From NCBI RefSeq assembly GCF_050920415.1, contig NZ_CP169309.1: DNA of 64,000 bases; one strand, 5' to 3'. This document shows, piece by piece, positions 341 through 9,744 of the stretch. Under the pieces are notes generated by a model. It was not told the DNA's origin. It saw only the letters and a list, made by a program, of their open reading frames with translations, and searched no databases. How positions within the stretch are numbered: position 1 is the stretch's first letter; the number at the start of each line of letters is the position of its first letter. Position numbers and translations under genes: made by a program. The DNA is from Escherichia coli. GTDB taxonomy: Bacteria; Pseudomonadota; Gammaproteobacteria; Enterobacterales; Enterobacteriaceae.

Positions 341-1429
341 ATGCCTCACAATCCTATCCGCGTCGTCGTTGGCCCTGCTAACTACTTTTCTCATCCCGGC
401 AGTCTCAATCACCTGCATGATTTTTTCACTGATGAACAACTTTCTCGCGCAGTGTGGATCTACGGTGAACGTGCACTTGCCGCGGCGCAAACCAAACTTC
501 CATCGGCGTTTGAACTGCCAAGAGCAAAGCATATTTTGTTTCGCGGTCATTGCAGTGAAAGCAATGTGCAACAACTGGCGGCTGAGTCCGGTGACGATCG
601 CAGCATGGTGATTGGCGTCGGTGGCGGCGCACTGCTCGACACCGCGAAAGCCCTCGCCCGCCGTCTCGGTCTGCCGTTTGTTGCCGTTCCAACGATTGCC
701 GCTACCTGCGCTGCCTGGACACCACTCTCTGTCTGGTACAACGATGCCGGACAGGCGCTACATTATGAGATTTTTGACGACGCCAATTTTATGGTGCTGG
801 TGGAACCGGAGATTATCCTCAATGCGCCGCAAGAATATCTGCTGGCGGGAATCGGTGACACGCTGGCGAAATGGTATGAAGCGGTGGTGCTGGCCCCACA
901 ACCAGAAACGTTGCCACTAACCGTGCGGCTGGGAATCAATAATGCGCAGGTCATTCGCGACGTCTTGTTAAACAGTAGCGAACAGGCGCTTGCCGATCAG
1001 CAAAATCAGCAGTTAACGCAATCATTTTGCGATGTGGTCGATGCGATTATCGCCGGAGGCGGAATGGTCGGTGGTCTGGGCGATCGTTTTACGCGTGTGG
1101 CGGCGGCCCATGCCGTGCATAACGGTCTGACTGTACTGCCACAAACCGAGAAGTTTCTCCACGGCACCAAAGTCGCCTACGGAATTCTGGTGCAAAGCGC
1201 CTTGCTGGGTCAGGATGATGTGCTGGCGCAATTAACCGGGGCGTATCAGCGTTTTCATCTGCCGACTACGCTGGCGGAGCTGGAAGTGGATATCAATAAT
1301 CAGGTGGAGATTGACAAAATGATTGCCCACACCCTACGTCCGGTGGAATCCATTCATTATCTGCCAGTCACGCTGACACCAGATACTTTGCGTGCTGCGT
1401 TCGAAAAAGTGGAATCGTTTAAAGCCTGA
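341..1429 (+). CDS. ybdH: iron-containing alcohol/glycerol dehydrogenase family protein (hydroxycarboxylate dehydrogenase YbdH/HcxA)
   Basis: 362-aa ORF; GGGxxxD-type NAD-binding motif (VIGVGGGALLDTAKA) typical of the glycerol dehydrogenase family; position next to ybdL/ybdD/cstA as in E. coli. Confidence 0.85.
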   Translation: MPHNPIRVVVGPANYFSHPGSLNHLHDFFTDEQLSRAVWIYGERALAAAQTKLPSAFELPRAKHILFRGHCSESNVQQLAAESGDDRSMVIGVGGGALLDTAKALARRLGLPFVAVPTIAATCAAWTPLSVWYNDAGQALHYEIFDDANFMVLVEPEIILNAPQEYLLAGIGDTLAKWYEAVVLAPQPETLPLTVRLGINNAQVIRDVLLNSSEQALADQQNQQLTQSFCDVVDAIIAGGGMVGGLGDRFTRVAAAHAVHNGLTVLPQTEKFLHGTKVAYGILVQSALLGQDDVLAQLTGAYQRFHLPTTLAELEVDINNQVEIDKMIAHTLRPVESIHYLPVTLTPDTLRAAFEKVESFKA

Positions 1430-1438
1430 CGTACAAAT

Positions 1439-1639
1439 TTAGCAGCAGCGCGCGCCGCCTTTTCCACCGTAGCGCGCGTCCTGCCGCTCACGGAAAAACT
1501 CCTCGTAGGTCATCGGCGTTTGATCGGGATGGTTAACCCGCATATGTTCGACATAGTTGTCGTAATCAGGCATACCAATCATCAGCTTCGCCGCCTGACC
1601 TAAATATTTTCCGGCTTTTGCCAGTGAATCAAACATCAA
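1439..1639 (-). CDS. ybdD: small DUF466-family protein YbdD (CstA partner)
   Basis: 66-aa [52 protein letters not shown], immediately downstream of cstA on the same strand; true start may be the second Met. Confidence 0.8.
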
Positions 1640-1689
1640 TACCTCCGGTAATCAGGTTGCTGAGAGAGTGCATTAATAGCTATCAACGC

Positions 1690-1775
1690 GCTCGGTCAGT
1701 CCCCTCGCCCCACCAGGGAGAGGGTTAGGGTGAGGGGGAACCCCAGGCACTACGCCAACATCCCCCTCACTCTGA
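1690..1775. repeat. GC-rich extragenic inverted-repeat element between cstA and ybdD
   Basis: Arms gggtgaggggg (about 1728-1738) and ccccctcac (about 1762-1770) are reverse complements, embedded in a run ccctcgccccaccagggagagggttagggtgaggggg; class not assigned. Confidence 0.35.
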
Positions 1776-1777
1776 CT

Positions 1778-3883
1778 TTAGTGCGCGCCTTTCGCCTGCG
1801 CCACGATCTCCTCGACATTTTCCGGCATTGGCTCATACGGCGTTTCTTTCGCCGTTGGCTTCGGCTCTTTCAATGCCGCCAGTGCCGTCTTAATCGAGAA
1901 CAGTGCCAGAACCACCACAACCACCATAAAGAAGATGGTTAATCCGGCATCCAGACGGTTGTTGAACACCAGTTGCGCCAGTTGTGACTCAGTATACTGC
2001 GACGGAATATTGCCGCTGTCGATCATTGCCTGGAACTTGTTAGCAATCGCCAGGAAACCGACTTTCGCATCCGGGCTAAACGCTTTCTGCCAGCCTGCGG
2101 TCAGGGTACAAATCAGCAGCCAGGCCGTTGGTACCAGCGCCACCCAGGCGTAACGTTGACGTTTCATCTTGAACAACACCACGGCACAGAGCATCAGCGC
2201 CATCCCTGCCAGCATCTGGTTGGCAATACCAAACAGCGGCCACAGAGTGTTAATACCGCCCAGCGGATCGACCACGCCCTGATGCAGAAAGTAACCCCAA
2301 GCCAGCACGCACAGCGCCGTTGCCAGCAGGTTAGCAGGCAGTGAATCGGTCCGTTTCAGGCCCGGAGAAACCACGCCCAGCAGATCCTGCAACATAAAGC
2401 GCGCAGCACGCGTACCCGCATCCACCGCCGTCAGAATAAACAGTGCTTCAAACAGAATGGCGAAGTGATACCAGAACGCCACATCCATCATGCCACCCAG
2501 CGCGCCGTGCAGAATGTAGGCCATCCCCACCGCCAGGGTCGGCGCACCGCCCGCACGGGAAATGATCGACTGTTCACCCACTTCGCTGGCAATCTGATTT
2601 AACGTATCTGGCGTAATGCTAAAGCCCCAGCTACTCACTACCTGCGCAGCAGATGCCACTACATCCGCCGTCCCCGCCGGAGCCAGCACCGCCATCGGAC
2701 TGTTCATCGCGAAGTACACGCCCGGATCGATGATACAGGCAGAAACCAGTGCCATAATCGCCACGAAGGATTCCATCAACATCCCACCGTAGCCGATAAA
2801 GCACGCCTGACCTTCGTTCGCCAGCATCTTCGGTGTGGTGCCGGAAGAGATCAGCGCATGGAAGCCAGACACCGCGCCACAGGCGATAGTAATAAACAGG
2901 AACGGGAACAGATTACCGGTCCATACCGGGCCAGTGCCATCTACAAACTTGGTCAGCGCAGGCATGGTCAGCGTCGGACGCATAATCAAAATGCCTACCG
3001 CCAGACCGACGATAGTCCCGATTTTCAGGAAGGTAGAGAGGTAGTCACGCGGAGCCAGCAGCAACCACACCGGCAGAACCGCCGCCACAAAACCGTAACC
3101 CACCAGCATCCAGGTCAGCTGCACGCCGGTAAAGTCAAAGTACGGTGCCCAAGTCGGGCTTTCTGCCACCCAGCCGCCAGAGATAATGGCGAAAATAAGG
3201 AATACCAGGCCAATCACCGACACTTCCCCAATGCGGCCTGGACGCAGATAGCGCAGGTAAATCCCCATGAACAGCGCCAGCGGAATGGTGAACGCAACGG
3301 TATACGTTCCCCACGGGCTATGAGTCAGGGCTTTCACCACGATCATCGCCAGTACTGCAAGGATAATGACCATGATCATAAAGCAGGCCACCAGCGCAAT
3401 CACCCCGGCGGTTGGCCCCATCTCTTCTTTAACCAGCTCGCCCAGCGAGCGACCGTCACGGCGCGTGGAAACAAACAGCACCATGAAATCCTGCACCGCA
3501 CCGGCGAGAACCACCCCGGCAAGTAGCCAGATCATCCCCGGTAGGTAGCCCATTTGCGCCGCCAGTACCGGCCCCACCAACGGGCCTGCTCCGGCAATGG
3601 CCGCAAAATGGTGACCGAACAGCACTTTCTTGTCCGTCGGCACATAGTCCAGCCCGTCGTTATGGCGCACCGCTGGCGTCATACGCGTCGGGTCAACCGC
3701 CAATACATTTTTGGCAATATAAAGACCATAAAAACGGTAAGCGATCAGATAGATACAGACCGACGCCACCACAATCCACAGCGCGTTGATCTGTTCCCCA
3801 CGATTTAAAGCAATGTATCCCAGAGCAAATGCTCCCATTACAGAGAGCACTGTCCAGACGAGGTATTTCCCTGATTTGTTCAT
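1778..3883 (-). CDS. cstA: carbon starvation protein A (peptide/pyruvate transporter CstA)
   Basis: 701-aa polytopic membrane ORF with the characteristic CstA N-terminus MNKSGKYLVWTVLSVMGAFALGYIALNRGEQINALWIVVASVCIYLIAYRFYG. Confidence 0.92.
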   Translation of the reverse strand: MNKSGKYLVWTVLSVMGAFALGYIALNRGEQINALWIVVASVCIYLIAYRFYGLYIAKNVLAVDPTRMTPAVRHNDGLDYVPTDKKVLFGHHFAAIAGAGPLVGPVLAAQMGYLPGMIWLLAGVVLAGAVQDFMVLFVSTRRDGRSLGELVKEEMGPTAGVIALVACFMIMVIILAVLAMIVVKALTHSPWGTYTVAFTIPLALFMGIYLRYLRPGRIGEVSVIGLVFLIFAIISGGWVAESPTWAPYFDFTGVQLTWMLVGYGFVAAVLPVWLLLAPRDYLSTFLKIGTIVGLAVGILIMRPTLTMPALTKFVDGTGPVWTGNLFPFLFITIACGAVSGFHALISSGTTPKMLANEGQACFIGYGGMLMESFVAIMALVSACIIDPGVYFAMNSPMAVLAPAGTADVVASAAQVVSSWGFSITPDTLNQIASEVGEQSIISRAGGAPTLAVGMAYILHGALGGMMDVAFWYHFAILFEALFILTAVDAGTRAARFMLQDLLGVVSPGLKRTDSLPANLLATALCVLAWGYFLHQGVVDPLGGINTLWPLFGIANQMLAGMALMLCAVVLFKMKRQRYAWVALVPTAWLLICTLTAGWQKAFSPDAKVGFLAIANKFQAMIDSGNIPSQYTESQLAQLVFNNRLDAGLTIFFMVVVVVLALFSIKTALAALKEPKPTAKETPYEPMPENVEEIVAQAKGAH

Positions 3884-4194
3884 AGTTGTTATCCGTGTGC
3901 GTGTCCATAGAGATGTTACATTTTGTTTCTATATCAGCAGATTTTATTTAACAACCAAGAAACCAATGCGCACAACAAAAACACCTCATATTTACATCAC
4001 ATTGTTAACGAGATCACTTTAGTCGCGAAAAGACGTGTACAATTACGGACAATTGAGAGGGTTGACTCACCAGAGTAGTAACACTACTTATATGCGAAAA
4101 TGCATAGCCGAAATCTATAGTATTCCGCGTCAATGTTATGCAACGCAACTATACGATAGCATGGCTATTTCGTTATATGATAAGGAGTCCTCCC

Positions 4195-4617
4195 ATGAGC
4201 TATGACAAAGCGAAATACCATTTTGACTCGGTTATAGAAGAAGGTTTACCGCTCAGCCAGGCATACATCCATACTGGTTTTTATTTAGGTTGGTTGATTG
4301 ATAATAACTTGTTGGACGAGGAGTTTAAGGAAGATCTCGCTGAATCTCTTGCCCTCTTTACGCGCAGAGAAATAACAGCCCCTCAGCTTTTTGAAGAATT
4401 CGATGGTACTTTGACCGATGAAGAACTTTCGACCCAAGGAAACGCCTTTACTAAACATTATTTTGATTTTGATACAGGCGATTATCTCGAAGACTACTGC
4501 ACCCATCTTGTCAAAGATCTTCCCAGCGAATTCCATGTAAAAGACACATGGGAAAACTATAAAATCGCAGCGAGTTTCATATCCAGACGCTATCAGGAAT
4601 GGCTACAGAACCAATAG
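4195..4617 (+). CDS. hypothetical acidic protein, unknown function (strain-variable insertion between cstA and entH)
   Basis: ORF in the 4138-4617 frame; probable start ATG 4195 preceded by taaggag Shine-Dalgarno (4181-4187); 140 aa MSYDKAKYHFDSVIEEG; surrounding DNA visibly AT-rich; no homolog recognised by eye. Confidence 0.5.
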   Translation: MSYDKAKYHFDSVIEEGLPLSQAYIHTGFYLGWLIDNNLLDEEFKEDLAESLALFTRREITAPQLFEEFDGTLTDEELSTQGNAFTKHYFDFDTGDYLEDYCTHLVKDLPSEFHVKDTWENYKIAASFISRRYQEWLQNQ

Positions 4618-4685
4618 TCTCACCCTCTGCACATATTTTTCCGGGTAGCGCTTTCACTTACCAGGCCAACAAATTCTCGCGAATC

Positions 4686-4715
4686 GTAGGCCTGATAAGC
4701 GAAGCGCATCAGGCA
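4686..4715. repeat. REP (repetitive extragenic palindrome) element
   Basis: gtaggcctgataagcgaagcgcatcaggca matches the E. coli REP consensus; lies between the 140-aa ORF and entH. Confidence 0.7.
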
Positions 4716-4727
4716 TATTAATCCAAT

Positions 4728-9556: not shown

Positions 9557-9584
9557 ATCATCCTCCACAAAATGATAAAGGCTT

Positions 9585-9603
9585 TAATAATGATTATCAT
9601 TTA
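9585..9603. promoter_or_regulatory. Fur box in the divergent entC / fepB promoter region
   Basis: taataatgattatcattta closely matches the Fur consensus GATAATGATAATCATTATC; located between the divergent entC and fepB starts. Confidence 0.75.
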
Positions 9604-9744
9604 TATTTTCGGTCGCTAACCTAAAAGCAAACGAGCACTATGTCAACTCTTGAGGTAACGCAATCTGCAAGTCGGGGTTGCATCTGCTTGTGGTTACAAT
9701 GAAAATGAGAAGCATTAACTTCATTAATAACAGGAAGCTGATTT

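Follow-up and report, generated by a model that had tools for sequence, protein, structure and literature searches.

The spacer between cstA and ybdD spans 138 nt (positions 1640-1777 of the window, the whole 64,000-nt stretch of Escherichia coli DNA that was analysed), has a GC content of 59%, and holds a GC-rich palindrome. It is transcribed from right to left, and the mRNA is the reverse complement of the plus strand. The arrangement of genes agrees with the RefSeq annotation of strain MFDS1022581, in which the locus is identical:

Positions 341-1429, plus strand: hcxA (ybdH), the neighbour beyond ybdD.
Positions 1439-1636, minus strand: ybdD, the downstream gene, encoding a small protein of the YbdD/YjiX family (RefSeq annotation of the identical locus).
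Positions 1778-3883, minus strand: cstA, the upstream gene, encoding a pyruvate/proton symporter, with its stop codon at 1778-1780 (RefSeq annotation of the identical locus).

Two inverted repeats were found within this spacer. The first, I2, has arms of 16 nt at 1724-1739 (GTTAGGGTGAGGGGGA) and 1761-1776 (TCCCCCTCACTCTGAC), separated by 21 nt and 88% complementary, with 14 of the 16 positions pairing; the second, I3, has arms at 1701-1710 (CCCCTCGCCC) and 1728-1737 (GGGTGAGGGG) that are 90% complementary. No inverted repeat of the quality of I2 occurred in 1000 dinucleotide-preserving shuffles of the 138-nt spacer, in which 16-nt arms paired at a mean of 10.4 and a maximum of 13 positions. 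The 85-nt element also folded better than its shuffled equivalents on both strands: as RNA, the plus strand reached -45.0 kcal/mol (z -4.7, with none of 200 shuffles as good), and the transcribed minus strand -43.5 kcal/mol (z -2.6, with 4 of 200 as good), while folding as DNA gave z values of -4.4 and -2.7 for the plus and minus strands, respectively. Hence the palindrome is a real feature that did not arise by chance, as the shuffles never matched I2, and the folding exceeded that of shuffles on both strands. An initial sequence-only reading, which had reported a G/C-rich imperfect palindrome at 1690-1775 in the cstA-ybdD spacer, was therefore right in this observation, as it was in the genes assigned to either side, and in its judgement that the element was not a standard REP.

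On sequence grounds, the palindrome is a copy of BoxC, a known dispersed repeat of E. coli. This family was described in the 1990s as a 56 bp element with 32 copies (Bergler/Bachellier), was rediscovered as the PIT ('potential intrastrand triplex') element (Hoyne and Maher 2000), and has since been given further names as the TMECO triplex motif (Holder et al. 2015, PMC4666352), and as the HPG1/HPG2 G-quadruplex-hairpin motif (Kaplan et al. 2016, PMC5100583). The pattern of Holder et al., CCCTCNCCC-N3-6-GGGNGAGGG-N3-GGGNGAGGG, matches positions 1702-1736 (+) exactly, which is its single match in the 64-kb window; none of 100 shuffles contained one, and the number expected by chance was 0. Within this match, the G-rich 21-mer GGGAGAGGGTTAGGGTGAGGG at 1716-1736 has no mismatches to the HPG1 consensus dGGGAGAGGGTTAGGGTGAGGG, members of HPG1 being recognised by four G3 tracts with loops AGA, TTA and TGA, and by being identical to, or at most one mismatch from, GGGAGAGGGTTAGGGTGAGGG. 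The TTA second loop, together with one mismatched pair, makes this copy 'type A mm', the form most often seen among K-12 copies (Holder et al. 2015, PMC4666352). The BoxC unit exceeds these three blocks, as it includes a 5' flank of approximately AAAGYGCNCGGWCRGTCCCC and a 3' flank of approximately GAACAGGCCAGCAC. Both are carried by the window, at 1686-1701 and 1739-1750, with the 5' flank GCGCTCGGTCAGTCCCC and the 3' flank GGAAC..CAGGCAC each agreeing with the family consensus. The parts of the window copy, and the structures predicted for its transcript, are as follows:

Positions 1686-1701, plus strand: conserved 5' flank ACGCGCTCGGTCAGTC (family consensus approximately AAAGYGCNCGGWCRGTCCCC), common to the 15 K-12 copies in alignment A2.
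Position 1691, minus strand: putative equivalent of the K-12 Term-seq 3' end at 632098 (+), placed by homology with K-12.
Positions 1701-1724, minus strand: RNA hairpin H2, CCCUCUCCC-UGGU-GGGGCGAGGG(G), predicted from minimum-free-energy folds.
Positions 1702-1710, plus strand: C-rich block CCCTCGCCC, the first BoxC/TMECO block, part of the exact TMECO match.
Positions 1711-1715, plus strand: loop 1, CACCA, variable among copies.
Positions 1716-1724, plus strand: G-rich block 1, GGGAGAGGG, which pairs with the C-rich block with one mismatch, corresponding to 'type A mm' among the Holder types.
Positions 1725-1727, plus strand: loop 2, TTA, which defines the type A or HPG1 subtype, from identity to the HPG1 21-mer.
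Positions 1728-1738, plus strand: G-rich block 2, GGGTGAGGGGG, the left arm of the palindrome first reported, from the repeat search and the TMECO pattern.
Positions 1728-1772, minus strand: RNA hairpin H1, GAGUGAGGGGG, a 23-nt loop, then CCCCCUCAC, starting 6 nt past the cstA stop codon, predicted from minimum-free-energy folds.
Positions 1739-1761, plus strand: 3' flank and spacer AACCCCAGGCACTACGCCAACAT, the loop of the palindrome first reported, with an inner GGC/GCC stem in the folds.
Positions 1762-1776, plus strand: right arm CCCCCTCACTCTGAC, ending 1 nt before the cstA stop codon, from the inverted repeat search.

When 15 K-12 copies, each taken individually from published coordinates, were aligned in register, they had the core and both flanks in common, and every one lay between annotated CDSs, as does the window copy. 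The correspondence extends to the ordered blocks, the TTA loop, the single mismatch, the flanks, and the intergenic, multicopy distribution of the family, such that all testable sequence-level defining features of BoxC, TMECO and HPG1 are present in the window copy. Of the 5426 complete E. coli genomes searched by BLAST with a 91-nt query of the element, 5388 had matches, the number of places per genome being 14 at the median and 23 at most; hence it is a dispersed repeat. The locus itself has also been catalogued, as Table 1 of Kaplan et al. 2016 (PMC5100583) lists cstA>>>632058(-)>>>ybdD as an HPG1 member (HPGQ no. 19, midpoint 632058). Since the family has been described, and a published table includes its K-12 copy between cstA and ybdD, the element is already known: it is an ordinary catalogued repeat, and not a new regulator. 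Relative to the window, the K-12 copy has a G-to-A change in its last block (GGGTGAGAG), a duplication of 10-12 nt and an adjacent REP, whereas the window holds the intact consensus without the REP. A search of positions 1300-2100 with the Rfam covariance models at a permissive threshold returned sub-threshold chance matches only, the best being a eukaryotic antizyme element, at 21 bits against a gathering score of 40.

These results leave a negligible probability that the element is a chance GC-rich palindrome, or a diverged REP or BIME. The high GC content of the spacer, and the occurrence of REP elements in this same spacer in K-12 and Enterobacter, are what might suggest such an origin, but the observed inverted repeat was beyond the reach of all 1000 shuffles, and the element matches a different, well-defined family exactly. 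Both forms of this explanation are refuted by the TMECO match, the K-12 copies, the alignment of alleles and the shuffles. The window element lacks the REP consensus palindrome (of the GCCGGATG..CGCCTTATCCGGCCTAC type), and bears no similarity to the REP of K-12 (TAGGCCGGATAAGGCGTTCACGCCGCATCCGGC), which in K-12 and other alleles stands as a block of its own, and which the window allele does not have.

The palindrome first reported is not the conserved hairpin of the family, which is the neighbouring one, but the third BoxC block paired with a flanking remnant. One of its arms, CCCCCTCAC, lies beyond the core BoxC repeat. The core of the window copy does not differ from that of BoxC, PIT or TMECO elements, but it is followed by this 15-nt inverted remnant, where some other loci have a full inverted type B partner. 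Judging from alignments with such loci, the right arm CCCCCTCACTCTGAC (1762-1776) is probably the vestige of an inverted BoxC partner that has been truncated. At fepB-entC, ygfF-gcvP, alx-sstT and hrpB-mrcB in K-12, an inverted type B copy comes after the type A copy, and positions 1739-1761 of the window align with the stretch that separates the two members of K-12 BoxC pairs. In semi-global alignments, positions 1737-1776 matched the 3' sides of three paired K-12 loci better than shuffles did (z 2.4-4.0), and had no match to the 3' sides of single K-12 copies; in the stricter local alignments the resemblance was not significant, with 114-240 of 1000 shuffles being equally good. The partner remnant is consequently considered probable, as moderate support came from the semi-global alignment and not from the local one. 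Separately, the last codons of cstA and the bases that follow, AAAGGCGCGCACTAAAGTCAG (1772-1795, minus strand), resemble the 5' flank of BoxC copies such as that at adk-hemH (AAAGCGCGCACGGACAG), and Salmonella has the same codons at the end of cstA without a BoxC. From sequence comparison, this likeness may be either a coincidence or the mark of a preferred target.

The allele in the window is rare: across a 341-nt span over the spacer, only 3 of 5426 E. coli genomes were at least 99% identical to it, and 5058 fell in the 80-90% band. Nine sampled alleles (311, 312, 327, 341, 343, 353, 372, 374 and 381 nt) included at least 8 different lengths, and their alignment (A3) resolved several forms. 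These were the intact BoxC without a REP, as in the window; BoxC with a REP, which is the K-12 type and the majority; a BoxC that has lost 6 nt; and alleles without the three-block core, in which a plain hairpin, GTCAGAGTGAGGGG...CCCCTTACTCTCAGC, is left, with the BoxC flanks still bracketing it. The collapsed, hairpin-only allele, found in Nissle and other B2 strains, was present in 1189 of the 5426 genomes (22%), and a near full-length element (at least 80% of the 91 nt) in 4045 (approximately 75%). The K-12 and window spacers are homologous, differing by the point change, duplication and added REP described above. The spacer between cstA and ybdD is thus a hotspot at which alleles turn over through changes in BoxC, REP and collapsed hairpins. 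Such variation agrees with the 'genomic instability' and 'palindrome effect' that Holder et al. 2015 (PMC4666352) attributed to TMECO loci; in their comparison of 56 strains, these loci varied more than the controls did.

This variability bears on an explanation at the level of DNA, in which the G-rich strand folds into an intrastrand triplex or a G-quadruplex and thereby disturbs replication or recombination, so that the locus becomes a rearrangement hotspot, with any effect on RNA being incidental. We regard this as possible, albeit rather doubtful. Oligonucleotides of the TMECO type A mm form, nearly identical to the window copy, form stable intrastrand triplexes through their G-rich strand in vitro, as assessed by CD and NMR (Holder et al. 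2015, PMC4666352), and those of HPG1 can alternate between a G-quadruplex and a hairpin (Kaplan et al. 2016, PMC5100583); the number of length alleles at this locus, and the absence from the window of the BoxC pair that K-12 has at fepB-entC, also fit frequent rearrangement. However, DMS footprinting saw no triplex protection in vivo (Holder et al. 2015, PMC4666352), and in the account that the same paper gives of the follow-up by Maher, PIT elements left replication in vivo unaffected. The variability could equally stem from slippage, or from recombination between ordinary repeats. Furthermore, the G-rich strand is the template for cstA, and therefore is not left single-stranded by transcription, which argues against a transcription-coupled non-B structure. 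This explanation is compatible with the RNA-level one preferred below, and the two are not strictly exclusive.

In the orientation in which BoxC lies between cstA and ybdD, the mRNA bears the C-rich side of the repeat, and the cstA transcript crosses the element in the order G-block, C-block, C-block, G-block. The predicted fold of this transcript, of the stability given above, consists of two adjacent hairpins, H1 and H2, and leaves unpaired the Shine-Dalgarno sequence of ybdD (GGAGG, at 1642-1646). No U-tract follows H1, which is succeeded by CCUAACCC, or H2, which is succeeded by ACUGACCGAGCG, and hence neither constitutes a canonical intrinsic terminator, in which a U-tract comes after a GC-rich stem with a short loop. 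The element resembles such terminators in being a GC-rich RNA stem-loop downstream of a stop codon, but differs in lacking the U-tract, in the 23-nt loop of H1, and in having no consensus match: a consensus scan of 1640-1777 found no terminator-like site on either strand, and no promoter-like site.

The transcript nevertheless has a mapped end close to these hairpins in K-12. The Term-seq data of Adams et al. 2021 (Supplementary files 1 and 3) place a 3' end at 632098 (+) of MG1655 during growth in LB to an OD of 2.0, which is weak, with an average of 1686 reads, and present in one of three growth conditions. It is a G ending ...GGGGCGAGGGGACUGACCGAG, located 84 nt upstream of ybdD and 10 nt beyond the base of H2, and belongs to the K-12 allele, which, unlike that of the window, bears a REP downstream. 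There were no operon or terminator data for the organisation of the cstA-ybdD transcript in Hwang 2018, and no entry for either gene in Yan 2018. In the tables of Adams et al. 2021, 3' ends also lie 3-11 nt past the same C/G hairpin of BoxC at five further K-12 sites: at lldD, where it is the primary 3' end, at hrpB-mrcB, in the fepB leader, antisense to rluF, and at ilvC-ppiC (positions 3781065(+), 164636(+), 624567(-), 4231270(-) and about 3959.5 kb(-); loci L132, L123 and L126). This association is drawn from a handful of sites. A distinct and strong 3' end of the fepB leader, at K-12 position 624680 (-) in L126, has 1.0e5 to 2.4e5 reads, and is immediately upstream of the C-block of a type B BoxC.

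It is unlikely that the element is a dedicated attenuator or terminator, through which the hairpins stop or pause RNA polymerase, in a regulated manner, to set the expression of ybdD relative to cstA. In favour of such a device, the K-12 3' end upstream of ybdD was detected only in LB at an OD of 2.0, when cstA is induced; moreover, a hairpin at the position of H1, directly past the cstA stop codon, was kept in all nine E. coli alleles that were folded, and every other enterobacterial lineage examined had some GC-rich hairpin in its cstA-ybdD spacer. That of Salmonella is GCCCTCTCC-N7-GGAGAGGGC followed by AUUUGG, and this CCCTCTCC/GGAGAGGG hairpin with its AUUUGG resembles the second hairpin found in the B2 allele of E. 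coli; the spacer of Enterobacter asburiae contains a two-block CCCTCTCCC/GGGAGAGGG hairpin in addition to a REP; and in a further enterobacterial lineage there is a complete type B TMECO, oriented the opposite way (positions 737-770 of L148/L149, about 655-690 of L150, and about 720-790 of L147 for these spacer hairpins in other genera). The retention of a hairpin after the cstA stop codon, and the presence of GC-rich hairpins in other genera, could therefore reflect selection for a local function, as opposed to a repeat being merely tolerated. Against a dedicated device, both hairpins lack a U-tract, the terminator scan was negative, and the K-12 3' end is weak; each genome also carries BoxC, in one orientation or the other, at approximately 14 intergenic sites that are unrelated. 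In the follow-up by Maher, as summarised by Holder et al. (PMC4666352), PIT elements had neither promoter nor terminator activity in reporter assays. Finally, the locus tolerates the loss of the core in 22% of genomes, and therefore the element is not a dedicated regulator. The sequence-only reading had proposed a structured RNA element, or a terminator or attenuator between cstA and its small partner gene: the structured element was borne out by the stable fold and the nearby 3' end, and the locus-specific terminator or attenuator was contradicted by the dispersal of the repeat, the missing U-tract, the negative scan and the genomes without the core.

The element is instead very probably a generic BoxC copy, the RNA hairpins of which would serve as a barrier or 3'-end-defining structure, rather than as a riboregulator dedicated to cstA-ybdD. 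Two adjacent GC-rich hairpins without U-tracts would form in the cstA mRNA, and by analogy with REP elements, may act as a generic barrier that defines 3' ends; a fraction of cstA transcripts would then end approximately 10 nt past the second hairpin, whether by termination, by pausing or by exonuclease trimming, with the remainder reading through into ybdD. When a hairpin blocks 3'-to-5' exonucleases, the 3' end is expected to lie a few nucleotides beyond a stable stem that lacks a U-tract, and ends of this kind are established for REP-stabilised mRNAs and for trimmed Rho-dependent transcripts. The 3' ends past BoxC hairpins fit such blocking, and its application to cstA-ybdD is what we infer. 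Like BoxC, the REP and BIME elements that stabilise mRNA 3' ends, such as that of malE-malF, are GC-rich palindromes scattered outside genes, in 3' UTRs and in the spacers between cistrons. In both cases the RNA forms a hairpin that no U-tract follows, and 3' ends map a few nucleotides downstream. However, the two sequence families are unrelated, such that the likeness is one of function and not of membership, and the role of stabiliser is that of REP. To our knowledge, BoxC has neither an experimentally established function nor a link to a RAYT-type transposase.

A broader proposal, which we advance tentatively as conceivable but short of likely, is that BoxC hairpins are a second REP-like class of general elements that form or protect RNA 3' ends, and that they set a transcript ratio at cstA-ybdD, which different alleles tune. 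It draws on the Term-seq 3' ends found 3-11 nt past the C/G hairpin at six or more BoxC sites, the main end of lldD among them. If true, BoxC would set the ratio of transporter mRNA to small-partner mRNA at this locus, and the many length alleles would tune the cstA/ybdD mRNA ratio between lineages. The discovery value of the palindrome itself is small, as the family already has four published descriptions, each using another name, and the locus is in a published table; for annotation, it should be labelled BoxC, and not a candidate riboregulator. What is added is modest, comprising the recognition of the spacer as a hotspot of allelic turnover, and the Term-seq data that tie BoxC hairpins to RNA 3' ends. 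The latter link might be the sole part that goes beyond the prior literature, and offers a cheap test of a BoxC function.

Other features of the window and of the family were seen alongside these results. The entC-fepB spacer (window 9569-9744, 176 bp) is without BoxC, and in K-12 (L126) it holds an inverted pair of type A and type B copies; this pair is thus a presence/absence polymorphism approximately 8 kb from the cstA-ybdD element. On the other side of cstA, the cstA-entH spacer (3884-4727) spans 844 bp, compared with only about 180 bp in K-12, and occurs at its full length in just 33 of 5426 complete E. coli genomes. It includes a 159-aa ORF at 4138-4617 (+) that matches the Pfam family DUF7832 (E 5e-36), after which there is a REP-like palindrome at approximately 4687-4715. 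The TMECO three-block pattern is also very abundant far outside the enterobacteria, in Mitsuaria chitosanitabida (L011-L117), a Methylomirabilota MAG (L003-L010) and a Contendobacter MAG (L018-L020). Mitsuaria has at least 100 copies of the pattern, often in inverted pairs, and these Mitsuaria copies have a lineage-specific loop, GCTTGC, and 3' flank, TCTTCGGGC.
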